32,000 nucleotides of DNA from Planctomycetales bacterium (GTDB lineage Bacteria > 4484-113 > JAFGCY01), in contig CP060262.1 in assembly GCA_022646745.1 (NCBI GenBank), forward strand, positions 2,070,001-2,102,000, in the 5' to 3' direction. Shown piece by piece: positions 6,955-30,895 of the stretch. The translations under genes and the position numbers were made by a program. A model generated the notes under the pieces. It saw only the letters and a program-made list of their open reading frames with translations. It was not told where the DNA came from and did not search any database. Each line of letters opens with the position of its first letter. Position 1 is the stretch's first letter.

Positions 6955-8598
6955 ATGCACAGACTGACTGCAGGCGTGCTGCTGCTGATCGCCATGCTGG
7001 CATCCGGCTGCGGCGGAGGACAGGCGGGGCCGCAGGCCAGCCCGCCGACGGATGCCCCCGGCCTGCCGTCAGTGCCGGCTGAACTTGAGCGCTCGGCAAG
7101 CTACGACACGGTATTCCTGCTCAGCTACGGTGATGAGTACCGGGCTTCTCTGCCCAGCAACCGCGTGACCATCGCCGGCGACAGCCTGCTGTTCAGCCCC
7201 GACTGGGATCCCGCCGGAAAGCCGGCGGATGCATCGCAGCTGGCCTTCGCGCTGTACAGCTTCCCGATCGCTGACTATCCGGGGGAGGCCTACATTGACC
7301 TCAACTGGAACGGGGCGGCCCCGGCGCAGGACTACTTCATCGGCATCGCCGATCCGAACGCACTGCGCTGGCAGTGGTACAGTGGCACGGCGCGTTTCTC
7401 ACCGCCTGGTGGCTTCGCTCCCTGGCTGTATCCCTCAGGCGAAGTCCTGATCGCAGTAATGCTCAGTGGCACGCAGGCTCACACACTCGACAGCCTGCAG
7501 GTCGGTGAGCCGCTGGAGTTGCCGAGCCTGCCAGTGGATGAGATCGTGGTACCGGATGGCTTCCGGGTCAGCCTGTTCGCTTATCCCGTCAACAACGCAC
7601 GCGCCATCTGCCATGGACCGGATGACATCATCTTCGTCGGCACCCGCAATGGCGGCACCAGTGGCCTGTTCGCGCTGCAGGATGCTGACAACAACACGCT
7701 GGTCACGCCGGGCGAGACCTTCTCCATCTACCAGGGCTACACCCAGCCCTGCGGGGTGGACTACCGCGACGGCTACCTCTACTGGTCGGACATCAGCCGC
7801 ATCTGGCGCGCTCCTATCACGGACCAGTTCCTTGCCCCACCGGCGGCTGAGCTGGTCAGCGACCAGTTCCCCACCGAGACGCACCACGGCTGGAAGTTCA
7901 TTCGCTTCGGGCCGGACGGAAAGCTATATGTGCCGGTAGGCGCACCCTGCAACATCTGTGACGATGGCGACCCCTACGCCACGATCATGCGGATGGATGC
8001 CAACGGTGACAACCTCGAGATCGTGGCCCGCGGCATCCGCAACACGGTCGGCTTTGACTGGCATCCCGTCACCGGCGAACTGTGGTTCACTGACAACGGG
8101 CGCGACAGCCTCGGTGACGGCATCCCGCCGGACGAGCTGAACCGCATCCCGGCCGGCTTCGAGGGCATACCGCACTTCGGCTACCCCCACTGGCACGGCA
8201 ATGACATCGCTGACCCGACCTACGGCGGCGGGCACACGGCCGATGAGTTTGAGCTGCCTGAACAGGAACTGGTGGCGCACTGCGCGGCACTCGGGATGCG
8301 CTTCTACACCGGCGAGATGTTCCCGGAGGAGTACCACAACCAGATATTCATCGCCGAGCATGGTGACTGGAACAACTTCTCTGACAACGTAGGTTGCCTG
8401 GTCAGCCTCGTGAGGCTGAATGAAGCCGGCACTGCCGCTGTCTCATACGAGCCCTTCGCCACCGGCTGGCAACGGGAGGATGGCACACGCTGGGACCGCC
8501 CGGCGGATGTGCAGGTGTTGCCGGATGGCTCACTGCTGGTCAGTGGCGACCAGGCCGGAGCGCTATACCGGATCACGTACCATGGGAGTGGGCAGTAG
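6955..8598 (+). CDS. Lipoprotein with a C-terminal PQQ-dependent sugar (glucose/sorbosone) dehydrogenase beta-propeller domain
   Basis: Start MHRLTAGVLLLIAMLASGC (lipobox) with AGGAG upstream. The C-terminal part has HHGWKFIRFGPDGKLYVPVGAPCN, RGIRNTVGFDWHPVTGELWFTDNGRD and PDELNRI, typical of the sorbosone dehydrogenase family. An N-terminal domain of about 180 aa is shared with the two downstream lipoproteins. Confidence 0.8.
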   Translation: MHRLTAGVLLLIAMLASGCGGGQAGPQASPPTDAPGLPSVPAELERSASYDTVFLLSYGDEYRASLPSNRVTIAGDSLLFSPDWDPAGKPADASQLAFALYSFPIADYPGEAYIDLNWNGAAPAQDYFIGIADPNALRWQWYSGTARFSPPGGFAPWLYPSGEVLIAVMLSGTQAHTLDSLQVGEPLELPSLPVDEIVVPDGFRVSLFAYPVNNARAICHGPDDIIFVGTRNGGTSGLFALQDADNNTLVTPGETFSIYQGYTQPCGVDYRDGYLYWSDISRIWRAPITDQFLAPPAAELVSDQFPTETHHGWKFIRFGPDGKLYVPVGAPCNICDDGDPYATIMRMDANGDNLEIVARGIRNTVGFDWHPVTGELWFTDNGRDSLGDGIPPDELNRIPAGFEGIPHFGYPHWHGNDIADPTYGGGHTADEFELPEQELVAHCAALGMRFYTGEMFPEEYHNQIFIAEHGDWNNFSDNVGCLVSLVRLNEAGTAAVSYEPFATGWQREDGTRWDRPADVQVLPDGSLLVSGDQAGALYRITYHGSGQ

Positions 8599-8736
8599 TC
8601 AGTAGGCAGTGGTCGGTACTGAATCAGAAGCAGAATGAGAAGCAGCAGAATCTGAAGCCGCGAACTGTTCGCTGAACACCGGAATCTGCTGTTTCTGCCA
8701 ACTGCTTCTCATCCTGACCACTGGCCACTGACTACT
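8594..8736. repeat. 143-bp imperfect palindrome built from 7-nt units (GGCAGTA/GTCAGTA/GAAGCAG types)
   Basis: Left arm AGTAGTCAGTAGGCAGTGGTC (8594..8614) against right arm GACCACTGGCCACTGACTACT (8716..8736). Central perfect hairpin GCGAAC-T-GTTCGC (8660..8672). It lies between convergent stop codons. Confidence 0.8.
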
Positions 8737-8744
8737 CACAACTC

Positions 8745-10097
8745 CTAGCGGAAGCGGTAGATGCCGGCTTCCGGGTCCAGTTCCAGTTCGACCTCCAGCG
8801 GCTGGGAGCCGCCATCGTACTTCAGCGTATAGGTGAAGGTATCCGTGCCGAAGAAGTTCAGCGGGATTGTCAGCTGGCCGGCCTTGCCGGTCTTGATGCT
8901 GATTTCCTCGCCCGCCACCTGCATGCTCAGTTCGGCATCCGGAATCGGACCGGTAATGCCGATCAGGATCGCGATGATGCCGAGGCTCTGGCTGCCCGGC
9001 AGCTGCATGAAGGGCGCGGCATTCAGGGCATTGTTGGTCTCGATCCCACCACCGGCACGCAGCATGCTGAAGGGATGCTGCCAGCCGTTCAGCTCGCCGG
9101 GATTGAAGAAGCCGTTGCGCCAGAGGTTGTAGTCTGAGGCATCGACGGAATTGAGGGCGGTGGTCGGTTCACCCGGCTCGCCGTCGGGCAGCAGGTTGAC
9201 GGGCAGGGCGAACAGCAGCCGTTCACTGCCCGATGTGTCATCAAACGAGAAGTCCTGCCTGTAGACATTGCCCTGCTCGATGTAGCTCATCGTTCCCACG
9301 CTGTCATTCCACAGCCCGCCGCCTTCCGAGCCCGCTGAGTTCCACTGGATGCTGCCATTCTCGCCTGAGCCAAATCCGTCGCTGGCACTGTTCCGGAACT
9401 TGCGCCAGTCCCACAGCTCCGTATTGTTGATGTAGCCGCTGACACTGCTTGTGCCGGGGTGGGCCGCGATCAGCAGGAAGCGCACGCTGCCGTCAGCCAT
9501 GCAGTAATCCTGGCTCTGGCTGAAGCTGCGACGGAAGTTGTACTGCGCGGAGGGGTTGTGCGTGCCGTCCGCGTTGTACTGCCCGGACTCGAAGCCGTCT
9601 GTGAATATCCGGCCGCCGACCTCCCAGCGTCCGTTGCCGGGGTTGGCAATCGCGAAGAACCAGCGTGCATTGCCGCCGCTTTCCAGCCCGGCCTGCACCC
9701 ATGCCAGGTGGCCGTCATCGCCGAAGTCCACCCTGTACATCGCCCAGCCGACGATGCGCTTCTCCAGTTCGCTGTCCGGCACCTGCAGCAGCAGGTCGCT
9801 GCCATCCTGGCCAAGCACGATGTTCTTCGTGGTGACGATGTCGCTGATGCCGTCGCCGTTGACATCAGCGCTGGCGACACTGATGCTTGCATTGCGCGCA
9901 GCTGAGCTGCTCGCGAGACTGGCGACGGAGGGGATGCCGGCAGTGCTGAGGTCAGCATCGCTGACTGCCTCCACCGGGTCCGGCAGGTTGGGCTGCGGGC
10001 TGGGCTGGCCGCTGCCACCGCCGCCACCGCAGGATGCCAGCAGCATTGCCGCCAGCAGCAGCGCAAGTGTTGTTGTCATTGTTTTCGTGCCTGTCAT
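8745..10097 (-). CDS. Hypothetical lipoprotein, paralog of 10109..11443
   Basis: MTGTKTMTTTLALLLAAMLLASCGGGGGSGQP (lipobox). GAGGA RBS before the ATG at 10097; the ORF-track start at 10112 is a GTG. It shares WAxYR...FxAxANxxxGxWExGG and GIIAILIGxxGPxPD with the upstream gene. Confidence 0.75.
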   Translation of the reverse strand: MTGTKTMTTTLALLLAAMLLASCGGGGGSGQPSPQPNLPDPVEAVSDADLSTAGIPSVASLASSSAARNASISVASADVNGDGISDIVTTKNIVLGQDGSDLLLQVPDSELEKRIVGWAMYRVDFGDDGHLAWVQAGLESGGNARWFFAIANPGNGRWEVGGRIFTDGFESGQYNADGTHNPSAQYNFRRSFSQSQDYCMADGSVRFLLIAAHPGTSSVSGYINNTELWDWRKFRNSASDGFGSGENGSIQWNSAGSEGGGLWNDSVGTMSYIEQGNVYRQDFSFDDTSGSERLLFALPVNLLPDGEPGEPTTALNSVDASDYNLWRNGFFNPGELNGWQHPFSMLRAGGGIETNNALNAAPFMQLPGSQSLGIIAILIGITGPIPDAELSMQVAGEEISIKTGKAGQLTIPLNFFGTDTFTYTLKYDGGSQPLEVELELDPEAGIYRFR

Positions 10098-13866: not shown

Positions 13867-16760
13867 GACACCCAGGTTCCGCGTTTATGGTAGGGCCAGT
13901 ACTCCCCGTCCACCAGGCGAAACAGGATCACTTCACCGTGGTAGGGGAAGTCCAGATCAAGCACGGCGTCAGGACCAGCCTCGTCGGATTCTCTCTCCGG
14001 GTCATAGTAGTAGAACCCGGCGTATTGCTGCCATGACTCTGCTTTCTCGCGCAGTTCATCCTCAGTGAATTCGCGGCCTTCGTCAATGTAGTACTGGTAC
14101 ATCCTGCTGCGCTTGTAGCCCTCAATCGGGTCGGCACGGCGGTCAATCCATTCCATTGTGATGCTGTTCTCCGGCCATTCCCAGCGGTTGGCATCTCCAT
14201 TGTTGAGACGCTCATTGCTGCTGCCATCAAGGCAGATGCTGTACTCGCCGGCACTGCGGGCGAAGGCCACCGGGCCGGAGTTGTAGACGGTGAAGTAGCG
14301 CGCCTGCCAGGGGCTGCCGGTTTCCACACTCGCCACCCAGTCTAGCTCCCTTCCGCTTCCATCCTCCGGCCAGTACATTGCCAGCGCGCGGGCGATGCCG
14401 CGTTCCACCGGGCCCATTGCGGCAGGGTCGGCAGTCGGAGTGCAGTCAGCCCCGTCCGGGATGCCGTCGCCATCGCAATCGGGGTTGACCGGGTCGAGAA
14501 TCAGTAGTCGCTCCGCGATGTCAGTCAGGCCGTCGCCATCGCTGTCACGCTGCACTTCATCCAGGCTGAGTGGGCTCTCGACATAGTCCAGTACGGGATA
14601 AACAATCGGATACTGTTCGAGGTCGGCATCCGGCTTCAGCCGGTTGTGCAGTACGGTCAGCCCGCCATCACCAGCATCGCGCAGACTGAGCCAGGCGGTC
14701 GGTGCCAGGTTGCTGTTCCAGTGGGAAACCCTGTCAAGCAGGCCGGTTGGCAATACATGCCTGAAGCCCTGCCCCTCCACGGGCTCAAAGCCTACGTAAA
14801 TGTCGCGGTCGTCATACAGTCCCGGTGATGTGAACACGGCAATCCTGTCCGGGGTGCCGCTGTGGACTTCGGCCCAGCCGGGGATGCTCACATGCCTGTC
14901 GCCACCACTGTACAGCTCGAAATTGTCTTCCCTGACGGGGTAGGGCCCGGGGACCTGCACATGCAGGCCGCTGTAGCCGAACTCGTCGTTGGCAGCGAGG
15001 TAGCTCGCCCCGGCAGCGCCGCAGTTGGATATCGCCTCACGCAGCTCGATCAGCTGACCGGCAAATAGCGGCATTTCCTGCCAGCGCAGCAGGCTTGGCA
15101 GGCTCGCTTCCGAGTTGAGGTTCTGCAGCACGCGCAGCAGTCCGCTGGTCACAGAACCGTAGCTGCCGAATTCCTGGCGTGATGTATCCATGTTTTCTGA
15201 CTGGTGCATGTAGTAGTTGGCAAGGGCCAGCGCATCCATGTGGACCGCATCCGTGCCGGCGGTGCCGCTGAGCAGCTGCTCCTGTGCATTCAGGCCGCCG
15301 CCCACGATTTCGTCCATCAGTTCCCGGTCCGCCAGCGGATCAGCACTGGCAAGGAAACGCGCCAGCAATTCGTCATGCAGCGGCGGCCAGCTCAGGGCCT
15401 GCATCCGGCCGGGGAGGGGCTGGCCGTTTGCGCCAATCTTCACGGAGATGATTTCCGTATTCCGCGGAGAGGGCGTATATGGCCTTCCGTTGGCAATCAG
15501 CAGGTTCCTGCTGTTCAGCTGGCTGGTCCAGTCACTGAGCTCCAGGCTTGCCGGAAGTTCTGAGATGCTGAGGCTCCGGGGGTCGAGCATTGCGAAGTAG
15601 CTGTCCTGGTGGCCATTCTCGTCGACATCACCGATGTTGATCGTTGCCAGTACCATGTTGTCGTTGCTGCCCAGCAGCACGCCTCCTGGCCAGCCATCAG
15701 CCTTGCCAAGTCCGGCGAGTTCCTTCCCGCTGTCAATGTCGAAGCGGCGCAAGCCAGATTCGTCCACCAGCAGCAGCATTGAATCAACCAGGCCGATGCT
15801 CGCATAGTAGAACGAGCGTACATCCAGGTCCAGTACATAGAACCTGTCCCTGGTGTGGGCTTCCTTTGCAAGATGCCGCAGGCTGATCACTGCCTCAGTT
15901 CCGCCTGCCGGAAACCAGTCCAGGCTGAAGTCGATGAGATCGTCGCGCTTCGGCTGGCCGACCAGCAGGATGCCCTGCGGGTAGCTGTAGATCACCGCAT
16001 GCAGTTCAGGTTGCGGCAGCGGGATTGCCAGCGGATCCTCAAGGCCATTGAAGCGGTACAGCTGATTCTCAGATCTGACAACCAGCCCACCGCCGTCACC
16101 AGGCCGGCTGAATTGCTTGATTGGTGTCAGTTGCCACTGCCCAAGCACCTCTCCATCCAGCGGATCGAGGGCTCGCAGCACATCAGGCTCGCCATACTGG
16201 TTGACATCGGGTGAATGCGTGCCGACCCAGACGTAGCCATCGAATATGCCGAAGATGTGCTCGTAGTCAGCGGTCCACAGCAGCTGCCCATCCTCCAGCG
16301 AGCGGGCTTCGGTCTTGTAGCGCCACTCGTATACGAGCAAATTGTCCGCAAGGAACAGCTTATCCAGTCGGGCCGTGCCGTTTGGAAACAGCCGGTAGAA
16401 ATCGCTGGCGTAGTCCTGTTGCCAGAGCAGCGCCCCGCTGGCGGCATCCAGCAGATTGATGTCCCAGCCGTTGGTGTAGGCGATGTGCTTTTCATCTGCG
16501 ATGAAGGCATCAAACCTTGACCCGCCATCAATGTAGCGGTACCAGCCTTCGTAGTCAGGCAGCTCAGGGTCCTTGGCCAGCCAGTCATCGCCGGGGGCCA
16601 GCCCCCAGTACCCATCCGGGGGCAGCTGCAGTTCAAGGTAGCCCATCTCGGGGTCAGGTGCCGGCAGGCTCCAGTGTGCCGAAGCGGCAGGCTCCTCCTG
16701 CGCCGTGGCCAGCACCGGCAGCAGGCAAAGCATGAGCAGTGCGATCCGCAGTCGCTGCAT
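13863..16760 (-). CDS. Secreted protein, larger paralog of 11629..13866 (PQQ/BamB-like propeller repeats, TSP3-like repeats, same C-terminal domain)
   Basis: Signal peptide MQRLRIALLMLCLLPVLATAQ. Repeats of the type SGALLWQQDY and DGQLLWTADY. DSDGDGLTD and DCDGDGIPD. The C-terminal GPVERG...PWQARYF...GEYWPY aligns with the paralog. Confidence 0.7.
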   Translation of the reverse strand: MQRLRIALLMLCLLPVLATAQEEPAASAHWSLPAPDPEMGYLELQLPPDGYWGLAPGDDWLAKDPELPDYEGWYRYIDGGSRFDAFIADEKHIAYTNGWDINLLDAASGALLWQQDYASDFYRLFPNGTARLDKLFLADNLLVYEWRYKTEARSLEDGQLLWTADYEHIFGIFDGYVWVGTHSPDVNQYGEPDVLRALDPLDGEVLGQWQLTPIKQFSRPGDGGGLVVRSENQLYRFNGLEDPLAIPLPQPELHAVIYSYPQGILLVGQPKRDDLIDFSLDWFPAGGTEAVISLRHLAKEAHTRDRFYVLDLDVRSFYYASIGLVDSMLLLVDESGLRRFDIDSGKELAGLGKADGWPGGVLLGSNDNMVLATINIGDVDENGHQDSYFAMLDPRSLSISELPASLELSDWTSQLNSRNLLIANGRPYTPSPRNTEIISVKIGANGQPLPGRMQALSWPPLHDELLARFLASADPLADRELMDEIVGGGLNAQEQLLSGTAGTDAVHMDALALANYYMHQSENMDTSRQEFGSYGSVTSGLLRVLQNLNSEASLPSLLRWQEMPLFAGQLIELREAISNCGAAGASYLAANDEFGYSGLHVQVPGPYPVREDNFELYSGGDRHVSIPGWAEVHSGTPDRIAVFTSPGLYDDRDIYVGFEPVEGQGFRHVLPTGLLDRVSHWNSNLAPTAWLSLRDAGDGGLTVLHNRLKPDADLEQYPIVYPVLDYVESPLSLDEVQRDSDGDGLTDIAERLLILDPVNPDCDGDGIPDGADCTPTADPAAMGPVERGIARALAMYWPEDGSGRELDWVASVETGSPWQARYFTVYNSGPVAFARSAGEYSICLDGSSNERLNNGDANRWEWPENSITMEWIDRRADPIEGYKRSRMYQYYIDEGREFTEDELREKAESWQQYAGFYYYDPERESDEAGPDAVLDLDFPYHGEVILFRLVDGEYWPYHKRGTWVS

Positions 16761-16868: not shown

Positions 16869-17396
16869 ATGCAGATCGTGATCATGGACTACCAGCGGCG
16901 CTGGGCGGAGGAGTATGCGGCAATCGAGCAGGCCATCAAGGGCGTGGTCGGGCCGGAGGTGCAGCGCATCGACCATATCGGCAGTACGAGCGTGCCGGGC
17001 CTGGCGGCCAAGGACATCATTGACATCCAGCTCAGCGTGACGGCCATCGAGCCGGTTGAGGTCTATGGCAAGGGACTGGAGTCACTGGGCTACTTCGAGA
17101 AGCCGGGTAACCTCGAGCGCAACAAGCGCTACTTCCGTGAAAGCGGCGAAATGCGCCGGACCCATATACATATAAGGGAGAGCGGGGCCTTCGGCCAGCA
17201 GTTCGCGCTGTTGTTTCGCGACTACCTGCGCGCCAGCCCCGAGGAATGCGAGTACTACGCGGCACAGAAGAGAGAACTGGCGAAACAGGAATGGGAGAAT
17301 GTCAGCGACTTCGGCGATGCCAAGGACCCGCTGTTCTGGGAGATCATGCGCCGTGCCAATGCCTGGCAGCAGGACACTGCGTGGAGGAGTGGGTAG
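16869..17396 (+). CDS. GrpB family protein (UPF0157)
   Basis: IDHIGSTSVPGLAAKDIIDIQLSV and RTHIHIRESGAFGQQFALLFRDYLRASPEECEYYAAQKREL are typical of GrpB. The ORF-track start at 16674 is an extension. Confidence 0.7.
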   Translation: MQIVIMDYQRRWAEEYAAIEQAIKGVVGPEVQRIDHIGSTSVPGLAAKDIIDIQLSVTAIEPVEVYGKGLESLGYFEKPGNLERNKRYFRESGEMRRTHIHIRESGAFGQQFALLFRDYLRASPEECEYYAAQKRELAKQEWENVSDFGDAKDPLFWEIMRRANAWQQDTAWRSG

Positions 17397-18526: not shown

Positions 18527-19347
18527 GTAGCGGCGACACTCCTGTCGACGGATTGATCATAACAACGCCGACACACCAGTTGCCAAGCGCACATGCGTGC
18601 ACTTTCTTCTGTGGTATATGGCGACGGTTTTCTTGGCGCAGAGGCGCTGAGGAAAATGAGGCGCAGAGAATTCAATACTAATTCGGGCCAAGCATGATCC
18701 GTCAATTTAATGATCAGGATACCGGTTTGTAGTTGTTCACCAGGCGTTGAATTCCTTCTCGAAGGAATGGTACATGGAAGTTGATCATCAGGCCACGCTG
18801 CTTGCCTGAAAGGCGCAGGTATGTCAGCAACTGTGCCTTATGCACTGGCTCAAGTTTGTTGACAACCTTCAGTTCAAGGAAGAGCTCATTCTCGACGATC
18901 ATATCCACCCTGTAAGCCACCTCAAGCCTGACTCCCCGGTACGTCAGGGGCAATGGCGCCTCCACCTGGATTGCCATGTTTCGGTGGATCAATTCCTGGG
19001 CAAGACAGCTTTTACAGGCTGATTCCATCAGGCCGGGGCCAAGTTTCCGGTGAACTTCAATTGCCGCGCCAATCACTTCAGCAGTTAATGGATCGTGAGC
19101 TTCAATTTCATTATGCATAACGTAAGTATGGCATATTAATGTAAAGTCACAAACAAGAATTGTAAAATCTCTGCGCCTCAGAAATATCTGCGCCTCTGCG
19201 CCAAGAAAACCGTTTCGAGCCGAGTGAGTCTATCTCGAGCGAATGCGAGTCTCATAAGCAGGAAATGGAAATGGCAGCAGATCAGGAAGGAGGGGATATG
19301 GTGTCGCCGCTACGTTCATGATCCGGCGACAGGAGTGTCGCCGCTAC
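18527..19347. mobile_element. Cassette bounded by nested inverted repeats, carrying the GxxExxY gene (possibly mobile or IVS-like)
   Basis: Outer IR is a perfect 21-mer, GTAGCGGCGACACTCCTGTCG at 18527..18547, with its reverse complement at 19327..19347. Inner IR is 18625..18669 against 19168..19212, with 23 + 12 identical end bases out of 45. The interior is lower in GC than the flanks. Confidence 0.45.
18714..19118 (-). CDS. GxxExxY protein (PD-(D/E)XK-like; the family often annotated as 23S rRNA intervening-sequence protein)
   Basis: AEVIGAAIEVHRKLGPGLMESAC..CLAQEL....V..E..LPLTYRG....AYRVDMIVENELFLELK fits the family pattern, including the G..E..Y region and the D..(V/I)E.K nuclease-like motif. 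Confidence 0.8.
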   Translation of the reverse strand: MHNEIEAHDPLTAEVIGAAIEVHRKLGPGLMESACKSCLAQELIHRNMAIQVEAPLPLTYRGVRLEVAYRVDMIVENELFLELKVVNKLEPVHKAQLLTYLRLSGKQRGLMINFHVPFLREGIQRLVNNYKPVS

Positions 19348-22753: not shown

Positions 22754-24603
22754 CAGTTCACTGTGATCTGGTAGTTGTCAATGTCCGCCTCGGCCACGGA
22801 GAACACATCCGTGTTGGCCTGCGGGTTGATCTGTTCATCGGTGTAGAAGTCGACCTCCATCTGCACCGCGATCGGGTTGAGCAGCTGGTCACGCACCTCG
22901 CCCAGCTGGTCCTCGTTGTCAAGCAGGTTGATGCCGGCATCGCAGGTGAAGAACTGCACGGTGAAGTCCTCCGGGCGCTGCTCCGCCAGGTCGTAGAACA
23001 CGTTCGGGTCGATCGTCAGCGAGATCGCGTTCTGCGTGAACTGGCTGCCGACGTACCACGCGTAGGTATTGCTAAGGATGTCCGGCAGGGTGTCGGTCCA
23101 GTAACGCTCGGCGGTGGTGTAGTTGCTCTTGCCGAGCCCGTAGAAGATCGAGATCGAGTTGCCGCCGTCCTCCAGCGAGGAGTGCGGCACGATCAGCTCG
23201 TCACGGCTGAGGTTGTCAACCGGCGCGACCTCGATGCGTGTCGGTTGCAGGCCCGTCAGGTATGTGATGATGTCACCCTCCCAGGTGAACACGCTGTCAC
23301 CGCCGCCCTCCGGCGTCTCGCGCCCGCTGCGCTGGATGTAGAGCGTCTGGTCGAGGTTGTCCGGGTCACCGGTCACGAGGATGATGTCGGAGGAGTTGTC
23401 ATTGCCGGTCTCGTCCGCCAGGCAGTAGGTCGGCACGTTGTTGCCGGTGCTGAAGGCGACCGGCGTGGCCGCCAGTGTGCCGGCGCTGTCCGTCAGCCAG
23501 GCCCCGGCGCTGCCCGTGCCGTCGGCATTCTGCCAGCAGGCCAGCACCGCCTCGCGCGAGAGGTAGCCGTTGCCAATCGAAGCGCTGAAGCATTCACCGG
23601 GCACGTCGAGCGTGCTGCGCAGGCTGATAGTTCCGTCATCGGCCACGTCCAGCACGCGCACCATCCCGTCGGCTGCACCGGTGCCGCTTTCCGCGATCGC
23701 CAGGCTGTCGGTGCCCTGCTCGAGGATGCCGTGCTGCAGGCTGATCGCGCGGTCCGCCACGGTGATGCTGTCGGTCGCGGTGAATGTGCCATCCGCATTG
23801 CCCAGCAGCACCTGCACGGAGCGCACCCCGCCGCTTTCGCCGATCAGCGCGATGTCACTGATCGTGTCATTGTTGAATTCCTGCATGATGCTGTCCACCA
23901 GCACCTCGATCCCGAGCGGCTGGTCCGCCAGCGCGGTGAACTCGGCATTGCCATTGCCCTGCAGCACGCGGATGAAGGGCGCGGTGCCCGCATTGCCGGC
24001 ATCCAGCACCACGACATCGCGGTTGCCATCTGCATCGAAGTCGTAGTTGTGGCAGCGGAAGGGCCGCACGCCGTCGTTGATGTCGCGCACCGGGCGGAAG
24101 TAGATTGGCTCCAGCAGGTTGTCCTGCACGGCCACGCTTTCAATCAGCTGCGTCACGCCGTCCTCGGCGCAGGTCACCACGATGTCGCCGAAGCCATTGC
24201 CATCGGCATCGAAGGTGGTGGTGCAGGTCGGGCCGTCGCCGGTGCCGATCACGGTCGGGCCGCGCGGGATCTGCTTCGTGAACAGCTGCGTGCCGCCAGT
24301 CTCCGGGTGGAAGCCGATGTACAGCTCCCAGTTCAGCGCGCGGTCCTCGTTGGAGATCACGTCGATCGGACGGTCCACCGCACTGATGCTCGGCGCCTTG
24401 CTGAAGTTGAAGACGGTGTAGTACCAGTAGTCCGGGCTGAAGGAATTGCCGCGCACGCTCCAGATGATGTTCACCTCATCGGGATAGGGCACGATGTCCA
24501 GGCCGGAGTTGGCGTCATGCGCGCAACCGCCGGGGATGAGCATCGCCAGCACGGCGGCGAGCGCCAGGCTGCGGCTGGTCAGTGTTAAGCAGATGCGTGG
24601 CAT
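22753..24603 (-). CDS. FG-GAP/VCBS-repeat lipoprotein
   Basis: Start MPRICLTLTSRSLALAAVLAMLIPGGC (lipobox). Repeats FDADGNGFGDIVV, YDFDADGNRDVVVLD and NNDTISDIALIG. The ORF-track start at 24672 is an extension. Confidence 0.75.
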   Translation of the reverse strand: MPRICLTLTSRSLALAAVLAMLIPGGCAHDANSGLDIVPYPDEVNIIWSVRGNSFSPDYWYYTVFNFSKAPSISAVDRPIDVISNEDRALNWELYIGFHPETGGTQLFTKQIPRGPTVIGTGDGPTCTTTFDADGNGFGDIVVTCAEDGVTQLIESVAVQDNLLEPIYFRPVRDINDGVRPFRCHNYDFDADGNRDVVVLDAGNAGTAPFIRVLQGNGNAEFTALADQPLGIEVLVDSIMQEFNNDTISDIALIGESGGVRSVQVLLGNADGTFTATDSITVADRAISLQHGILEQGTDSLAIAESGTGAADGMVRVLDVADDGTISLRSTLDVPGECFSASIGNGYLSREAVLACWQNADGTGSAGAWLTDSAGTLAATPVAFSTGNNVPTYCLADETGNDNSSDIILVTGDPDNLDQTLYIQRSGRETPEGGGDSVFTWEGDIITYLTGLQPTRIEVAPVDNLSRDELIVPHSSLEDGGNSISIFYGLGKSNYTTAERYWTDTLPDILSNTYAWYVGSQFTQNAISLTIDPNVFYDLAEQRPEDFTVQFFTCDAGINLLDNEDQLGEVRDQLLNPIAVQMEVDFYTDEQINPQANTDVFSVAEADIDNYQITVN

Positions 24604-24671
24604 GCTGCGACTATTATAGTGATGGCCATACCTCATATATATGCAGAGAGTGCATCGGGCAGGTCTGTTCA

Positions 24672-25802
24672 ATGTTAAACAGCACGCAAGCGGCGGGGCA
24701 GGGGGGCCGGCTCGGCTTTGCGGACTGGCTCACGCGGGTCTGCGGCCGCAGCACTGCCACGGCGAAATCCTACGAACGCGATGCGGCGGCCTATGTGGAC
24801 TGGTCCGAGGGGCAGGGGCTGGCGCTCAGGCAGGCGCTGAACCGGGCGCAGCTCGGGCTGTACCTGATGGAGCGGATGGACGAGCGGCGGCGCTGGGCCG
24901 GCGAGCAGCAGAAGCTCGGGGCGCGCAGTGCGGCACGCATCGTCTCAGCGCTGAGGATGTACCAGGCCTGGCTGCGCTTCAACGGCGAGCTGGATGGCGC
25001 AGACGGCTTCGACCCGGAGCCGCCGAAGTACAGCCGCCGCCTGCCGGACTACCACAACACGGACGAAATGCAGGCGCTGGTCAGTGCCTGGGATGGCGAG
25101 CGCGGTCCGCTGGCGCTGCGCAATGCGGCGATGCTGCACCTGTTGTACGCCACCGGGATCCGCGCCAGCGAGCTGTGCGGGCTCAACATCGGCGATATCG
25201 AGCCGCGCGCGCGGCTGGTGCGGGTGCGGGGCAAGGGCAACCGCGAGCGCGTCGTGCCGTATGGCGCTAAGGCGGCGGCAGCGCTGGAGCAGTGGCTGAG
25301 CAGCGGGAGACCGCTGCTCGGGGATCAGGGACCTGGGACCAGGGACCAGACAGCTGATTCCGGGGATCGGGGGTCGGGTTTCGGGGATCCGCAGAGCTCT
25401 CAGTCTGACTCTCGCCAGCGCTCTGCCGAAACCGGAAACCGGAAACCCGCGACCCGCTCCGCCGAAACCGGAAACCCGGATACCGGTATGCGGAAACCCG
25501 AAACCGGAAACCCGAAACCGGACGCATTGTTCCTGAATCACCGGGGCAGCCGCCTGACCCGCCGCGGCCTGCATGACGTGGTGGACAAGTCAGCGCTGAA
25601 GGCCGGCATCCTGAAGTCCGTCTCCAGCCACAAGCTGCGCCATGCCTGCGCCACGCACCTCTTGGAGGGCGGCGCGGACGTCCGCCTGGTGCAGGAACTG
25701 CTGGGCCACCAGAGCCTGGCGACCACCCAGGTCTATACGCAGGTCACCCGCACCCAACTGCTCGACGCCTTCGACAAGGCGCATCCGCGGGCGAAGAAGT
25801 AA
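24672..25802 (+). CDS. XerC/XerD-family tyrosine recombinase carrying a ~68-codon low-complexity insertion
   Basis: ATGIRASELCGLNIGDI, VRVRGKGNRERVVP, HKLRHACATHLLEGGADVRLVQELLGHQSLATTQVYTQV. The insertion sits between GRPLL and ALFLNHRG, where E. coli XerD has only a few residues. Confidence 0.85.
   Translation: MLNSTQAAGQGGRLGFADWLTRVCGRSTATAKSYERDAAAYVDWSEGQGLALRQALNRAQLGLYLMERMDERRRWAGEQQKLGARSAARIVSALRMYQAWLRFNGELDGADGFDPEPPKYSRRLPDYHNTDEMQALVSAWDGERGPLALRNAAMLHLLYATGIRASELCGLNIGDIEPRARLVRVRGKGNRERVVPYGAKAAAALEQWLSSGRPLLGDQGPGTRDQTADSGDRGSGFGDPQSSQSDSRQRSAETGNRKPATRSAETGNPDTGMRKPETGNPKPDALFLNHRGSRLTRRGLHDVVDKSALKAGILKSVSSHKLRHACATHLLEGGADVRLVQELLGHQSLATTQVYTQVTRTQLLDAFDKAHPRAKK
25320..25523 (+). 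repeat. In-frame heptamer-repeat / hairpin element inside the recombinase gene
   Basis: GGGACCW units, GGGGATC units, the core GGTTTCGGGGATCCGCAGAGC..GCTCTGCCGAAACC, then GAAACCS units. It is homologous at the DNA level to 28830..28918. Confidence 0.8.
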
Positions 25803-25843
25803 TATTTTTGGGCCTGGACAGATCGCCTGGCATATGTTAAGTA

Positions 25844-25849
25844 TATAAT
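25844..25849 (+). promoter_or_regulatory. Candidate -10 box (TATAAT) for the M-R-V operon
   Basis: Perfect TATAAT 18 nt upstream of the dcm ATG. No convincing -35. Confidence 0.3.
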
Positions 25850-25867
25850 GTCAGAGGCGAGGTGTGC

Positions 25868-26914
25868 ATGTCAGGCAGCAAGTTCACGTTCATAGATCTG
25901 TTCGCGGGTATCGGCGGCTTCCGCTTAGCGCTGGAGAAGCATGGCGGCAAATGCCTGTTCACGAGCGAGTGGGACAAGTACGCCCAGCAGACCTATGAAG
26001 CCTGGTATGGCGACAAGCCTCATGGCGACATAACGAAGATCGACGCCGCAGACATTCCGGATCACGACATTCTCTGCGCCGGATTTCCCTGTCAGCCCTT
26101 CTCTCTGGCAGGCGTTTCAAAGAAGAACAGCCTCGGGCGCAGCCACGGATTTGACGACGAGAAGCAAGGCAACCTGTTCTTCGAGATCATGCGCATAGTG
26201 GAGGCCAAGCGACCACCCGTGCTGTTCCTTGAGAACGTCAAGAACCTCAAGAGCCATGACAAGGGCAATACCTGGAAGGTCATTGAGGAACATCTGATCG
26301 CTGCCAATTACACACCCTTCAGCAGAATCATCGATGCGAAATACTGGGTTCCGCAACACCGGGAACGGATCTTCATCGTCTGTTTTGACAACGAGCGTTT
26401 CGGCATGGACCCCGGGTTCGAGTTCCCTGAGGAACCTTCCGAGCCTGCAATGAAGTTCGGGGATATTCTGGAGAAAGGCGTAGATCCGAAGTACATCCTT
26501 TCCGATCATCTCTGGCAGTACCTGCAGGATTACGCCGACAAGCACAGGGCGGCGGGCAACGGCTTCGGATTCGGAATTGCTGATCCCAAGGGCATCTCAC
26601 GCACGATCAGCGCTAGGTATCACAAGGATGGATCAGAGATCCTGATCGGTCGAGGCAAGGGAAAGAACCCCCGCCGACTGACTCCCAGAGAGGCCTGCCG
26701 CCTGATGGGATTCCCGGATGACAAGCCTCAGGTTGTATCTGATACACAGGCATATCGACAATTTGGCAACGCGGTTGTTCCGCTTGCGGTGGAGCATGTG
26801 CTGATGGCAATTCTGCCTGTATTACGGAAAGCGACCAGAAAGAACCAGAAAATATCAAGAAGCAATGCAAAAGCCAAGACTGTCAAGGGAGCTCTTAAGC
26901 CTGTACAATTGTAA
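25868..26914 (+). CDS. dcm: DNA (cytosine-5) methyltransferase
   Basis: Motif I FIDLFAGIGGF, motif IV GFPCQPFS, motif VI-like LFLENVKNL, and C-terminal QFGNAV. GAGGCGAGG RBS. The ORF-track start at 25862 is a GTG two codons upstream. Confidence 0.9.
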   Translation: MSGSKFTFIDLFAGIGGFRLALEKHGGKCLFTSEWDKYAQQTYEAWYGDKPHGDITKIDAADIPDHDILCAGFPCQPFSLAGVSKKNSLGRSHGFDDEKQGNLFFEIMRIVEAKRPPVLFLENVKNLKSHDKGNTWKVIEEHLIAANYTPFSRIIDAKYWVPQHRERIFIVCFDNERFGMDPGFEFPEEPSEPAMKFGDILEKGVDPKYILSDHLWQYLQDYADKHRAAGNGFGFGIADPKGISRTISARYHKDGSEILIGRGKGKNPRRLTPREACRLMGFPDDKPQVVSDTQAYRQFGNAVVPLAVEHVLMAILPVLRKATRKNQKISRSNAKAKTVKGALKPVQL

Positions 26915-26916
26915 GC

Positions 26917-28107
26917 ATGAATAAATATTCATGGCAGCATATTGTCAGGCAATGCGCAGAATCGCGTTGTGCCCTTTTGAAGATAATCAGTCCAAATGAC
27001 GCTGGCATTACCGGCACCCACCAGTGCGGTTTCTATCTTCCCAAATCAGTCTGGCAACACTTCACTGGGATTTCTCCTGAGAAGGACACGCTGAAGAAGG
27101 AAGATCTCGAGATAACCTGGCCGGATGGACTAGTAACGGATTCCGTGATCACCTGGTATGGTCAGAAAACCAGAAGCGAGTACAGGCTTACAAAGTTCGG
27201 ACGAGGTTTCCCCTGGCTAAGGGATGAATATGTAGGCAACCTGTTGGTACTGATCTTCACAGATTTCGGTAAAGCACATGCACACGTGATCGGCGATGAC
27301 ACTCTTGAAGCAAAGGTGTTGAGTGCGCTCGGGGTAGAGTTGCATTCAAACTGGGCACTGTTCGTTGGCCAGCCCATTTCTATTGATAGTCCGGCGGAGT
27401 GCATTCAGAAGAAGCAGATTGAGTACGCGGACCTTTTCGACAAATTCCCCATGGCACGAAAAATGTCAGATCTAGCAGCAGACATTCTGGAATCTTGCTC
27501 CGATCCTGATTACATCAACAGGCCGGACAAGGCATTGCTGGATCTCATGACATTGGAATACGAATTGTTCAAGAAGATTGAGAACAGACTTGTTGGCGAC
27601 ATTTCACATGACGGTGATACGGACGCTTTCATTGAAGCAGTGCTTCCCCTTATTCAGAGACGAAAAGCCAGAGCAGGAAAGTCGCTGGAAAATCATGTGG
27701 CGAGACTTCTGCGAGCAAATGCCGTCAGCTTTGAGGAACAGGCAAAGCGGATAAAGGGAAAGCCAGACGTGGTAGTGCCGGAAGAATCCTACTATTTCAG
27801 CCGAGGATTCGATCCAGGGTCTTTCCTGGTTTTGGCAATCAAGCGTACATGCAAGGACCGTTGGAGACAGGTTACCGAAGAAGCTCCCAAAATGGATGTC
27901 CGGTATCTGCTGACAATGCAGGAGGGAATCAGTTCCAACCAGCTTCTGGACATTCATAATGCAGGAATCAGATTGGTGGTTCCAAAGCAGCTTCATCGAC
28001 TATATCCGAAAGTTGATGAAGGAAACCCAATCTCAGTGTATGACTTCATTGAGGAATGTCTGAGGATCAGCAATGCTCATGATCCAGGCCAGATGAAGTT
28101 GTTATGA
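26917..28107 (+). CDS. EcoRII-like type IIE restriction endonuclease
   Basis: N-terminal LLKIISPNDAGITGTHQCGFYLPK resembles the EcoRII B3-like effector domain. C-terminal RRKARAGKSLENHVARLL...GKPDVVVP...AIKRTCKDRWRQV resembles the EcoRII catalytic domain. It sits between a C5-methyltransferase gene and vsr. Size of 396 aa is close to EcoRII. Confidence 0.65.
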   Translation: MNKYSWQHIVRQCAESRCALLKIISPNDAGITGTHQCGFYLPKSVWQHFTGISPEKDTLKKEDLEITWPDGLVTDSVITWYGQKTRSEYRLTKFGRGFPWLRDEYVGNLLVLIFTDFGKAHAHVIGDDTLEAKVLSALGVELHSNWALFVGQPISIDSPAECIQKKQIEYADLFDKFPMARKMSDLAADILESCSDPDYINRPDKALLDLMTLEYELFKKIENRLVGDISHDGDTDAFIEAVLPLIQRRKARAGKSLENHVARLLRANAVSFEEQAKRIKGKPDVVVPEESYYFSRGFDPGSFLVLAIKRTCKDRWRQVTEEAPKMDVRYLLTMQEGISSNQLLDIHNAGIRLVVPKQLHRLYPKVDEGNPISVYDFIEECLRISNAHDPGQMKLL

Positions 28108-28508
28108 CTCCAACTACTGAATCCCGCTCCCGCAACATGGCGGCGATCAAGGGCAAGGACACCAAGCCTGAAATGCTGGTCCGGCGGATGCTGCATGGGA
28201 TGGGATTCAGATACTCACTGCACAGGAAGGGACTGCCAGGCAGGCCGGATATCGTGCTCACCCGTCATGGCAAGATCGTGTTGGTCAACGGCTGTTTCTG
28301 GCATATGCACAGTTGCAGGTATGGGCAGGTCAAACCCAGGAACAACGCGGAGTTCTGGGAAAACAAGCGGCAGACCAACCGTGAGCGGGACAGACGCAAC
28401 CGCCGGGACCTGAAAGCCTTGGGATGGAAGGTGCTTACTGTATGGGAATGCCAGACGCGTGACCCGAGGAAGTTGGAGCGCATCCTGCGGAAGTTCATGG
28501 ATAGCTGA
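28104..28508 (+). CDS. vsr: Very short patch repair endonuclease
   Basis: SRNMAAIKGKDTKPEMLVRRMLHGMGFRYSLH...LPGRPDIVL...VNGCFWHMH...NAEFWENKRQTNRERD...GWKVLTVWEC is a typical Vsr. ATGA overlap with the endonuclease gene. Confidence 0.9.
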   Translation: MTPTTESRSRNMAAIKGKDTKPEMLVRRMLHGMGFRYSLHRKGLPGRPDIVLTRHGKIVLVNGCFWHMHSCRYGQVKPRNNAEFWENKRQTNRERDRRNRRDLKALGWKVLTVWECQTRDPRKLERILRKFMDS

Positions 28509-28511
28509 ACT

Positions 28512-28605
28512 CTGAAAGCAGAGAGCAGTAAGCAGAAACTCACGAGCTGAAAACGTAATGCTGGAAGAAGTGGTCTGCTCGCTGCTATCAGCTTCCTGCT
28601 TACAG
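28512..28605. repeat. Heptamer-unit imperfect palindrome (GAAAGCA/GAGAGCA/GTAAGCA types) between the vsr and holB stops
   Basis: Left arm CTGAAAGCAGAGAGCAGTAAGCAG (28512..28535) against the reverse complement of 28582..28605, 18 of 24 matches by hand. The holB TAA stop (28600..28602) lies in the right arm. Confidence 0.7.
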
Positions 28606-29979
28606 CGAGGCCTCAAACGCCATCTGGGCCAGCTCGCGGTCCACGTTGCCGCTGATGCGCCTGCGCAGCAGGGCCAGCTTAGCCATGTAGGTGGGGTCGC
28701 CCCAGGGACCAGGGACCTGGGACCGGGGATCAGCATAACGGGTATCGGGTTTCCGGTTTCCGGTTTCGGCATACCGGGTGTCGGGTTTCGGGATTCGGGT
28801 TTCGGCATACCGGGTTTCGGGTTTCGGGTTTCCGGTTTCGGCAGAGCGCTGGCGTGGATCTGATTGAGGCCTCTGCGGACCCCCGAAACCAGATCCCCGA
28901 TCCCCGAGGCTTGTCTGCGGAGCCCCGAGCCCCGAGCCCCGAGCCCCGTCCTCCCAGTCGTCCATATTTATTATTCCGGTGTCGGGTGTCGGGTTTCGGG
29001 TTTCGGCATATCGGGTTGCAGGTTTCGGGTTTCGGGTTTCAGCAGAGCGGTTCTGCGGGTCCCCGTTCCCCGATCCCTGTTCCCTGTTCCCCGTATGCAG
29101 CAGCCACCAGCTGGCGCGGTCATAGGCGCTCACCAGCGCCTGGCGCGTAAGCTCATTCTGCCGCGCCTTCGGCAGCGCCTTCTCCAGCTCGGCCTCCTCC
29201 ATCCCGTGGTCGGCCTGTTCCTTCTCCCACAGCAGCGCATGCTCAAAGCCGGCCGCATCCGCCGCCGCCTCCAGCACCCCGCTGCGCCGCATGATGGCCT
29301 CGGCCAGCACGGTCAGCGCACGCCGCCAGGCCTTGTTCCCGCCGAGCGCCAGGCTGTCCACATAGCGTCCGCCGCCCAGCAGCGCCCCTTCACTGGCAGA
29401 CTGCGCATCCAGCCCACTGGCCGCCAGTGCCGCCGCCAGCTCCTCTGAGCCCAGCGGTGACAGCGTGATCTTCTGCCCACGGCTGTGGATCGTCGGCAGG
29501 AGCAGCTCCGGGCGGTCCGTGGTCAGCAGGAACACAGTCTGCGCCGGGGCCTCCTCGAACAGCTTCAGCAGGCGGTTGCCGCTTTCCTCGTTCAGGTGGT
29601 GCGCATTGTCGATCATGAACACGCGGTGGCTCAGCAGGTTCGGCTTGTACAGCGCCGTGGCGAGCCCGCCATGCTCCTCGTCCAGCTGCTTTACCGAGAC
29701 GTCCTGCCCGCGCGGACGCACTGTGACATACTCCGGCTGCTCACCGGCAGCGATCGAGCGGCAGGCGTAGCATTCACCGCAGAAGGACAGCGGCTCCGAG
29801 GCCGGACGTGCACCGGTGCAGCACAGGGCCCGGGCCACGATGGTGGCGAGCGTGGTCTTGCCCAGCCCGCGCTGCCCGAGCAGCAGGAATGTGCCGCTCA
29901 GCCGCCCGCGTTCGATGTAGCGCGTGAGCAGGGAGCGCGCACGCTGCTGGCCGACGAACTCGGAGGCGGATGCAAGCAC
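28600..29979 (-). CDS. holB: DNA polymerase III subunit delta' carrying a ~131-codon low-complexity insertion near the C-terminus
   Basis: LLLGQRGLGKTT P-loop, Zn-module-like CGECYACRSI, VFMIDNAHHLN, TIHSRGQ (SRC-like). GTG start at 29979 with no RBS. On the coding strand, TATAAT (29991..29986) ends 6 nt before the GTG, so the mRNA may be leaderless. The start is uncertain. Confidence 0.85.
   Translation of the reverse strand: MLASASEFVGQQRARSLLTRYIERGRLSGTFLLLGQRGLGKTTLATIVARALCCTGARPASEPLSFCGECYACRSIAAGEQPEYVTVRPRGQDVSVKQLDEEHGGLATALYKPNLLSHRVFMIDNAHHLNEESGNRLLKLFEEAPAQTVFLLTTDRPELLLPTIHSRGQKITLSPLGSEELAAALAASGLDAQSASEGALLGGGRYVDSLALGGNKAWRRALTVLAEAIMRRSGVLEAAADAAGFEHALLWEKEQADHGMEEAELEKALPKARQNELTRQALVSAYDRASWWLLHTGNREQGSGNGDPQNRSAETRNPKPATRYAETRNPTPDTGIINMDDWEDGARGSGLGAPQTSLGDRGSGFGGPQRPQSDPRQRSAETGNPKPETRYAETRIPKPDTRYAETGNRKPDTRYADPRSQVPGPWGDPTYMAKLALLRRRISGNVDRELAQMAFEASL
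28699..29091 (-). repeat. Two tandem in-frame copies of the heptamer-repeat / hairpin element inside holB
   Basis: In coding sense the order is: GGGAACA units, a GCAGA..CTCTGC core, GAAACCC units, the AT-rich junction AATAATAAATATG, GGGGCTC x4, GGGGATC units, the core, a long GAAACCS run, then GGTCCCW units. Confidence 0.8.
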
Positions 29980-30275: not shown

Positions 30276-30608
30276 ATGAATATCTATGTTGGCAACCTTG
30301 ACTTCAAGACCACTGAGAACGAGCTTCGTGAAGCTTTCGCCGTCCACGGTTCCGTGGACAGCTGCCGCATCATCACCGACAAGATGACCGGCCGCCCGAA
30401 GGGCTTCGCCTTCATCGAGATGGAGGATGCCGGTGCCCGCGCCGCGATCGCAGCCCTCGACGGCAGCCAGCTTGGCAGCCGCACCATCAAGGTGAACGAG
30501 AGCCAGCCGCGTGAGGACCGTCCTCGTGGCGGCGGCGGTGGCCGTGGCGGCTACGGCGGCGGCGGCGACCGTGGCTACGGCGGCGGTGGCGGCGGCGGTC
30601 GCTGGTAA
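30276..30608 (+). CDS. RRM-type RNA-binding protein with a glycine/arginine-rich tail
   Basis: RNP2 IYVGNL and RNP1 KGFAFIEM. C-terminal RGGGGGRGGYGGGGDRGYGGGGGGGRW. GGAGA RBS. Confidence 0.9.
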   Translation: MNIYVGNLDFKTTENELREAFAVHGSVDSCRIITDKMTGRPKGFAFIEMEDAGARAAIAALDGSQLGSRTIKVNESQPREDRPRGGGGGRGGYGGGGDRGYGGGGGGGRW

Positions 30609-30657: not shown

Positions 30658-30686
30658 GCGGGCGGGGGAAACCCCGCCCTTTTTGT
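30658..30686 (+). terminator. Rho-independent terminator
   Basis: GGCGGGG-GAAA-CCCCGCC followed by CTTTTTG. Confidence 0.75.
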
Positions 30687-30694
30687 TAGCTTGA

Positions 30695-30895
30695 AGGGAA
30701 CAGGTTGCAGGTTGCAGGAATAGCAATGAGTAATGAAGAGTGAGCAATGAGTCTTACCTGCAGCGAGGTTACCTCGAATAGGCTCAGGCTCATTGCTTAT
30801 AACTCATACTTCATTGCTTTCCTGACCACTGCCTACTGCCCACTGATTACTGCCACTCCGAGCTCCACCCTCCAAACTCCAACCTATACTTACTG
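30695..30895. repeat. Composite heptamer-unit array (GCAGGTT, GCAATGA/GTAATGA, then NNCACTG/CTCCNNN types)
   Basis: Arms 30723..30751 and 30789..30817 are inverted (21 of 29 by hand). 30820..30856 shares CCTGACCACTG with 8713..8723. 30858..30885 is an inverted copy of 5466..5493. Confidence 0.75.

Follow-up and report, generated by a model that had tools for sequence, protein, structure and literature searches.

Why does a tyrosine recombinase carry, within its catalytic domain, about 66 residues at a point where Escherichia coli XerD has 5? The question is raised by the gene for a Xer-type (XerC/D-like) recombinase of 376 amino acids (aa) at 24672..25802 on the plus strand of a 32,000-nucleotide (nt) stretch of contig CP060262.1 from a Planctomycetales bacterium. 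We refer to this whole stretch as the window, and all window coordinates count from its first letter. The additional residues are encoded by an in-frame 204-nt insert (25320..25523, plus strand; residues 217-284) that is repetitive at the level of DNA, not of peptide. It belongs to a class of elements that spans genes and intergenic hairpins; in this class, G-rich arrays of usually about four 7-nt units come first and C-rich arrays of complementary sequence second, often enclosing small palindromic modules. The answer we favor, with moderate confidence, is that the insert is a clade-specific inverted-repeat element made of heptamer arrays at the DNA level and accommodated in a permissive loop, with reading frame and stop codons as the only filter.

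The recombinase and its insert

Both Phage_integrase (6.9e-44, split over two stretches) and Phage_int_SAM_1 are matched by the open reading frame (ORF) at 24672..25802 in Pfam, and its best match in the PDB is E. coli XerD (1A0P, 9e-40). The protein combines a Phage_integrase fold with an N-terminal SAM-like domain and has a complete catalytic set, R164, K188, H320, R323, H346, and Y355. The initial annotation of this locus had placed the catalytic RHR-Y residues downstream of the insert, which is correct for H320, R323, H346, and Y355 but not for R164 and K188, both of which lie upstream. At 252.3 and 250.6 bits, the recombinase falls under the NCBIfam equivalog cut-offs for XerC and XerD (335 and 330, respectively), a score lowered because the insert splits the match, and "XerC/D-like" is therefore the safe name. 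Identical proteins are held at NCBI as MCB1220989.1 and UNM06872.1.

Alignment to 1A0P pairs residue 216 with XerD residue 198 and residue 283 with XerD residue 204, so that about 66 residues replace 5. This agrees with the earlier estimate of 204 nt (68 codons) at 25320-25523 in place of about 5 XerD residues, and the peptide quoted at that time is the exact translation of 25320..25523. We considered an assembly artefact and rejected it. Two independent assemblies (L002 and L003) are 100% identical to the window over 23672-26371 (2.7 kb), and the insert is real.

Read along the plus strand, the insert begins with a G-rich array at 25320..25349 (GGGGATC AGGGACC TGGGACC AGGGACC), which Tandem Repeats Finder (TRF) reports with a period of 7 as GGGACCA x4.1 at 25321-49. 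This array has four G-tracts, a canonical G-quadruplex motif at 25320-25344, and CCWGG sites at 25332 and 25339. A second G-rich array, of the GGGNATC type, follows at 25361..25389 on the same strand (CGGGGAT CGGGGGT CGGGTTT CGGGGAT; TRF, CGGGGAT x4.1, 25361-89); it too has four G-tracts and a quadruplex motif (25362-25386), and it forms the left arm of a hairpin, being paired with a C-rich arm in both minimum-free-energy and consensus folds. Next comes a nonrepeat core (25390..25427, plus strand), recognized by comparison of copies, with the palindrome GCAGAG...CTCTGC and a variable loop. The remainder, 25428..25522 on the plus strand, is a C-rich (GAAACCS)n array, the complement of GGGTTTC, which TRF describes as GAAACCG x13.3 at period 7 with 72% matches and which encodes a 7-aa period (ETGNRKP/ETGNPKP). 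With units of 7 nt, neighboring and near-identical units are read in different frames.

The claim that the insert consists of runs of 7-nt units and is not random low complexity is borne out by these TRF arrays and by period-7 enrichment over shuffled sequence. Allowing up to 2 mismatches, the window has 24 occurrences of GAAACCGGAAACC where 0.37 would be expected, and none of 100 shuffles came to this number. A scan of periods 4 to 14 found enrichment for 7 and its multiple 14 only, with 9 arrays in the window and about 0.1 to 0.2 in shuffles. The longest perfect tract measures 20 nt (2.9 units) in the Xer insert and 29 nt (up to 4.1 units) in the inserts of the nearby holB-like gene. Also as first described, GAAACCC is stop-free in all six frames. 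The insert as a whole lacks stops in four of six frames and is open in its own coding frame.

Two hairpin-capable pairs had been pointed out, GGTTTCGG with CCGAAACC and GCAGAGC with GCTCTGC, and both were found. The hairpin has arms of 40 nt (25361-25400 and 25417-25456) with 73% complementarity. The fold of the whole Xer insert shows a modest gain over shuffles (z = -2.2), and scans of the window with Rfam and for tRNAs gave no match. Six of the seven G-quadruplex motifs in the window lie in the Xer and holB inserts, two of them on the sense strand of the Xer insert. When run with its G-quadruplex option, ViennaRNA still preferred the hairpin over the quadruplex.

What becomes of the insert in the protein can be judged from structure prediction and from the constraint on reading frame. 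AlphaFold, with an alignment of orthologs as input, gave residues 222-281 a predicted local distance difference test score below 50. This segment falls between a helix at 199-217 and a strand at 285, and the flanking elements of the catalytic domain were mostly predicted with confidence to residue ~330, the C-terminal ~334-364 not. Structure prediction, proposed earlier as a check for a surface loop, is consistent with one, in that the segment is predicted to be disordered between two ordered elements. Across 8 Xer and 8 holB orthologs, inserts are always in frame and stop-free. An excised segment would need to be neither, so this constraint favors read-through, and we infer from it that translation of the insert gives a disordered surface loop. 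An intein or a self-splicing intron was considered as well and rejected, with no Hint or endonuclease domain in Pfam and no Rfam match.

Relatives, related elements, and surroundings

The insert-bearing loci compared here come from one clade: the window, L001 (metagenome-assembled genome [MAG] AC1.30), L024, and L026-L028. Two loci from the same phylum, L094 and L095, served as syntenic outgroups. An insert is present at exactly this site in 8 of 8 close Xer orthologs (58 to 77% identity), with content and length that are largely unrelated; the full-length proteins have 377 to 441 aa, and P0008 is a 305-aa fragment. Xer homologs at 55% identity or less have no insert or a few extra residues, and in L094 and L095 the Xer and holB genes stand back to back with no inserts and no intervening island. 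Alignment of orthologs, which the initial annotation had recommended, supports its suggestion that the insert is lineage specific. The homologous segment in unrelated phyla that would have spoken for an ordinary linker was not found, as distant homologs and the syntenic outgroups lack the insert. Possession of the insert correlates with heptamer arrays genome-wide: per 21 kb, period-7 arrays number 0 to 1 in L094 and L095 versus 8 to 14 in the clade loci, except L027 with 3. The L001 and L024 loci, like the window, are enriched for periods 7 and 14 only and have 8 to 9 arrays per locus, compared with about 0.1 in shuffled sequence.

In DNA sequence, the orthologous inserts differ from one another, each combining heptamer arrays and small modules in its own mosaic. 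The Xer insert of L024 reads GGGATGC x4 ... CTCCAAC, CCACTGA ... CATCCCC x4, and those of L026-L028 read AGCAATG/AGTAATG ... CTCATCC. L024 is the closest relative of the window, with flanks that share 92% identity (90 to 95%), and the alignment of the two stops exactly at 25300 and restarts at 25519, with a wholly different insert in each. No direct repeat flanks the Xer insert, and the borders of the insert vary among orthologs. The site is an old, conserved hotspot whose contents turn over, a point absent from the initial annotation, as is the wider class that joins the insert to the intergenic hairpins of the window.

Two inserts of the same class are found in a holB-like gene for DNA polymerase III delta' (28600..29979, minus strand), assigned by Pfam DNA_pol3_delta2 (6.2e-33) and the NCBIfam holB domain. 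Heptamer-type sequence fills ~400 nt of this gene, and the stretch between WWLLHT and PGPWGDP is missing in outgroup homologs. Insert A (28978..29094, minus strand) comprises (GGGAACA/GGGGAAC)x5, a reduced core, and (GAAACCC)n, and is read in the frame of the Xer copy (GDPQNRSAETRNPKP). Insert B (28700..28947, minus strand), delimited by TRF and core comparison, comprises (GGGGCTC)x4 (4.1 copies), a (GGGGATC)-type array x4, a core at 28840-28877, a (GAAACCS)n array arranged as a 36-nt higher-order repeat x3.1, and a terminal (GGTCCCW)x4. Over the 91-nt core and arms, the Xer insert and holB insert B are 87% identical and have an exact 27-mer in common. Their cores are in the same frame and encode the common peptide GDRGSGFG.PQ..SD.RQRSAETGN. 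The holB insert region folds with z = -4.4, its outer arms paired.

A conserved peptide island, GIINMDDWED, separates inserts A and B (28948..28977, minus strand) and recurs in all insert-bearing holB orthologs, where the form G(I/M)INMDDW(E/Q)G is kept between two hypervariable flanks. Synonymous DNA changes between the window, L024, and L001 point to constraint on the peptide, which may be an acidic-aromatic short linear motif gained together with the disordered insert. The same part of the gene caused trouble in assembly: short-read contigs of the same strain end in the 36-nt higher-order repeat of insert B, at 28858 and 28759, and these breaks lead to a truncated 322-aa holB product (P0122). 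Heptamer inserts fragment assemblies and truncate gene calls and also depress family-model scores, and in these ways they affect the annotation of such genomes.

Two further elements lie between genes, both of them long, near-perfect hairpins that are built from other heptamer families than the Xer insert. The first, between convergent genes (8585..8745), consists of units CAGTAGT/GGCAGTG ... CTGACCA/CTGACTA and has a folding free energy of -82 kcal/mol versus -49 in shuffles (z = -7.5); its array at 8593 overlaps a stop codon. The second (30695..30895; z = -4.1) lies between the terminator of an RRM-protein gene and an MBL-fold gene and consists of units CAGGTTG, AGCAATG/AGTAATG ... CATTGCT, ACTGCCT, CTCCAAC. 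It could not be aligned to L024 or L001, though its flanks align, and its unit families recur in frame in Xer inserts, CTCCAAC in L024 and AGCAATG/AGTAATG in L026-L028. Intergenic units include some with stop codons (CAGTAGT, AGTAATG), whereas the genic units GGGGATC, GGGACCW, and GAAACCS are open in all frames; the stop-containing AGCAATG/AGTAATG units survive in frame only when interrupted, for example as AGCAAGG. In all, ~37 kb of the source genome was read, and it holds 2 intergenic and 3 genic elements. Every element in the window has its G-rich arrays 5' and the complementary C-rich arrays 3'.

Small modules are shared between these sites. Between the window and the Xer gene of L001, 86 of 91 positions of the core and arms are identical (95%), compared with 85% overall and 73% at third positions in the flanking Xer coding sequence (P = 0.004), and the holB core is likewise better conserved than its flanks. 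Five core copies have conserved stems and a variable loop with no compensatory changes; in the Xer gene of L001, the GCAGAG/CTCTGC stem is broken without compensation. The copies cluster by locus and not by genome, from which it follows that the core duplication between Xer and holB is old. Recent gene conversion between the two cores was rejected on the same grounds, since any exchange must be old. Module 2 (CCGGACATCCGGGGCGGGGG...CGGGCGGGGATGTCAGACAGGCCGG), with the peptide SRRTSGAG..AGMSDRPA, occurs in frame in both genes across genomes and is identical at 61 of 68 positions between L024 Xer and L026 holB. Module 3 is a palindrome, GACGGCGCGACCCGGCGCGATGATTTCGCGCCGCAGCGC, nested in module 2 of L001 holB and found again in a second L001 holB insert. 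The loci with modules 2 and 3 are Xer and holB of L024, holB of L026, Xer of L027 and L028, and holB of L001.

How far the core is dispersed was addressed with large-scale searches. An 18-mer of the core, GGTTTCGGGGATCCGCAG, was scanned against 185,579 GTDB representative genomes (596 Gb, both strands); its only true match was the orthologous Xer locus of MAG AC1.30, three times, and the 18 other single matches compare with ~17 expected by chance (our own estimate), the pattern being too specific. In JGI metagenomes, a 22-mer (CGCTCTGCCGAAACCSGAAACC) had one match, at the 3' end of an oxidoreductase-like ORF in another organism. HMMER, given the 68-aa insert and 1.84 billion protein representatives, returned only the Xer cluster representative and three unrelated repeat proteins. 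When the insert peptide was joined to its reverse-strand translation and compared with a 5.8-billion protein set, 0 of 189 candidates reached an E value of 0.001 or less, a result that probably reflects a word-index or low-complexity limit and is uninformative. The core scans, which covered the source genome itself only over the ~37 kb read, gave only the orthologous Xer/holB loci and one short foreign match, so the core may be a local affair of two genes.

The broader class of heptamer arrays, in contrast, is widespread. In IMG/VR, (GAAACCS)3 and (GGGGATC)2.4 each occur in ~30 contigs versus fewer than 1 expected by a rough estimate, and 29 of 129 arrays on IMG/VR contigs lie inside long open frames. 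These arrays also share a direction. The G-rich array lies 5' of the C-rich array in 32 of the 32 clusters that have both, drawn from the window, L001, L024, L026-L028, and the IMG/VR loci L032-L093, and on unrelated IMG/VR contigs the G-array comes first in all 16 two-array clusters. This G-to-C order reads alike on both strands, and the opposite order occurred in 0 clusters.

The surroundings of the inserts are themselves variable. Between the convergent Xer and holB genes is a low-GC variable defense island, located at 25862-28508 in the window, 11244-12974 in L001, 12635-13627 in L024, 11200-13840 in L026, and 11457-15010 in L027. It contains a Dcm-type methylase, an EcoRII-like endonuclease, and Vsr in the window and L026, GmrSD in L001, an HNH_2 protein in L024, and genes of no assigned kind in L027. 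GGGACCW arrays at 25320-25349 and 28702-28729 flank the EcoRII/Dcm/Vsr island with CCWGG every 7 nt in the same plus-strand orientation. A link between these arrays and the restriction-modification genes was considered and rejected: the 128 CCWGG sites observed against ~110 expected are not unusual, and the link is probably a coincidence, as L026 has the same trio of genes without such arrays.

Elsewhere in the window, the RRM-domain protein encoded at 30276-30608 is small and has a Gly/Arg-rich tail, with GGC-rich repeats at 30528-30598. A terminator-like hairpin, GGGCGGGGGAAACCCCGCCCTTTTT, follows its gene at ~30662-30686, and the heptamer hairpin begins just downstream. A low-GC minus-strand ORF at 18630-19205 lies between the inverted repeats TTGGCGCAGAGGCGCTGAGG...GGCGCAGAGA / TCTCTGCGCC...CTGCGCCTCTGCGCCAA and has the look of a mobile unit or cassette of small size; in L001 and L027, a PDDEXK_3-family gene stands at the corresponding place. 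The L001 locus of MAG AC1.30 also has other intergenic tandem repeats close to these same genes, at 15046-15576, 4497-4641, and 17062-17197, with periods of 240, 37, and 36 nt.

Origin and role of the inserts

If the insert is a tolerated element, its history could have run as follows. In the ancestor of a small uncultivated clade, the element would have settled in the catalytic domain of Xer, at a surface loop that tolerates insertions, and in the same way at two loops of the neighboring holB gene. Each site would then have become a hotspot where arrays grow, shrink, decay, and get replaced, presumably by slippage or recombination, and where small modules are swapped between sites or nested in one another. 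Selection would act mainly as a filter, the genic survivors being those with lengths divisible by 3 and stop-free unit types. The insert would be translated as a disordered loop rich in Gly, Pro, Ser, Asp, and Arg, and would be neutral for the function of the enzyme, which would remain active as a recombinase.

Some of our own results weigh against this account. Taken alone, the Xer insert gives a weak hairpin signal (z = -2.2), and the core scans gave, apart from one short foreign match, no copies beyond the orthologous Xer and holB loci, which may count against a dispersed element. No member of the clade has lost the insert, which could mean that the loop is needed. The core, moreover, is not evolving neutrally: conservation above that of the flanks points to either nucleotide-level constraint or recent exchange, and tolerated junk would predict neither. 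A passive element leaves both this conservation and the G-to-C polarity in 32 of 32 clusters unexplained.

Conservation of the core is what would be expected if core and arms were a functional nucleic-acid element, a selected RNA or DNA hairpin or G-quadruplex with the peptide as a by-product, which might tune translation speed, mRNA stability, or local DNA metabolism. The core exceeds the coding flanks in conservation in both Xer and holB, its five copies keep their stems around a variable loop, the Xer insert has two canonical quadruplex motifs in the sense orientation (with 6 of 7 window motifs in inserts), and the preference for four units is that of published quadruplex-forming GGGNATC repeats (PMC4692102). 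We nevertheless regard such an element as unlikely, given that there are no compensatory changes, that the stem in L001 Xer is broken, that the closest relative, L024, has replaced the entire Xer insert, and that a fold z of only -2.2 comes with no Rfam match and with a ViennaRNA preference for the hairpin even when quadruplexes are allowed. Selection could instead act on the peptide. The clade would then need a long flexible Xer loop for contacts with a partner or regulator, and slippage would only supply the material. All 8 orthologs do keep ~60 to 130 extra residues of similar Gly/Pro/Ser/Asp/Arg-rich composition, and GIINMDDWED in holB, conserved through synonymous changes, indicates that insert-borne peptides can be functional. 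But no peptide is common to all Xer inserts, their content is unrelated in close relatives, the same units build noncoding hairpins, and outgroup enzymes from the same phylum manage without the loop, all of which makes a selected linker rather unlikely. The fixed polarity could also be taken to mean that a dedicated, lineage-restricted activity makes inverted arrays in one order and rewrites hotspots, including loops of essential genes, with the 91-nt core as its functional nucleic-acid module. A candidate mechanism would be that G-rich 7-nt repeats are added, from a template, to the two 3' ends at a break. Such an activity strikes us as quite unlikely; if it exists, the gene behind it could be sought by a clean comparison of presence and absence between the insert-bearing clade and its array-free syntenic sister.

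Two more familiar explanations fare worse. A classical nonautonomous transposable element, either a miniature inverted-repeat transposable element (MITE) or one like the Rickettsia palindromic elements, would be mobilized by a transposase in trans and have many copies elsewhere. The palindromic build, the nested modules, the occurrence of in-frame copies in two unrelated genes with the encoded peptide conserved, and an identity between genes and genomes that exceeds that of the flanks all fit this picture. It is still very improbable: the insert borders have no target-site duplication or defined terminal inverted repeats, no other host genes emerged from GTDB genomes, JGI metagenomes, or 1.84 billion protein representatives, and the copies group by locus, not by genome. 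The initial annotation had further proposed a contingency switch, in which gain or loss of heptamers would frameshift the recombinase off and on. A unit of 7 nt is indeed no multiple of 3, and the insert precedes four of six catalytic residues. However, the tracts are short and imperfect, with no more than 2.9 perfect units in Xer, and the assemblies, which come from two samples and three runs, show 100% identity in the Xer insert, holB insert A, and part of insert B. All 8 Xer and 8 holB orthologs are in frame, and the same arrays, with up to 4.1 perfect units, sit in holB, whose product, the clamp-loader subunit delta', is essential in studied bacteria. Judged from assemblies and orthologs and not from reads, phase variation is not supported and has almost no chance of being right.

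A tolerated heptamer-array element thus remains the reading we prefer, and it matters beyond this locus. It means that repeat dynamics at the DNA level can write long disordered segments into conserved enzymes, here the catalytic domain of a recombinase and the clamp-loader subunit delta', with no filter other than frame and stop codons. Proteins can gain new loops by this route, and holB may have gained a new short linear motif.

Comparison with known repeat families

Short tandemly repeated repetitive (STRR) sequences, the cyanobacterial heptamers, were reportedly described in 1990, and to our knowledge the origin of bacterial heptamer repeats is still unexplained. The present elements provide handles on that origin in their strict G-to-C polarity, their tendency toward four units, and a sister lineage that shares the synteny but has no arrays. 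The initial annotation had likened the insert to STRR heptamers and to Rickettsia palindromic elements, and both likenesses are apt, the one for the form and number of the 7-nt units and the other for in-frame palindromic inserts.

Among heptamers, the closest published counterpart is the G-rich GGGNATC family of Xanthomonas and Nostoc, which prefers four units and forms G-quadruplexes in vitro (Rehm et al. 2015, PMC4692102). Those repeats are dispersed and mostly intergenic, with 7 to 11% in ORFs in Xanthomonas and about a third in Nostoc, and they occur with the G-rich strand directly after stop codons on the sense strand (PMC4692102). The unit size is the same here, GGGGATC fits GGGNATC, arrays have ~4 units with four G-tracts, and the array at 8593 overlaps a stop codon. 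In contrast to the published repeats, a G-array is followed here by a complementary C-array to form inverted repeats that are joined by small palindromic modules, and long translated inserts stand in the middle of catalytic or essential genes and turn over between close relatives. The host differs as well, being from an uncultivated lineage that is related neither to cyanobacteria nor to xanthomonads.

Rickettsia palindromic elements are short palindromes inserted in frame in unrelated housekeeping genes, where the encoded peptide is tolerated at the protein surface (PMC10969869). The Xer and holB copies are comparable in being in frame, stop-free, and endowed with a common peptide. Unlike them, the Rickettsia elements are discrete, ~100 to 150 bp long, and sorted into defined families whose copies run to dozens; here the documented host genes number just two, and the inserts have no sharp ends, a body of heptamer arrays, and hypervariable content at a fixed site. 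The intergenic elements at 8585-8745 and 30695-30895 resemble hairpins of the repetitive extragenic palindromic or bacterial interspersed mosaic element type and stem-loops like intrinsic terminators in being long, stable hairpins between genes, but they are formed from 7-nt arrays and are far longer, and the genic members of the class would be translated. The small dispersed repeats of heterocyst-forming cyanobacteria are said to have been described by Elhai et al. in 2008 as tiny hairpin repeats, often within tandem heptamers, nested, and sometimes genic. Modules 2 and 3 would be similar in kind, although the sequences are unrelated and the phylum differs.

By unit size, form, and number, the elements described here fit the heptamer-repeat family and depart both from MITEs, with their sharp ends and target-site duplications, and from phase-variable tracts. 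What sets them apart from all of these precedents is a composite of inverted arrays, long translated loops in the middle of essential or catalytic genes, turnover at hotspots, and the lineage of the host.

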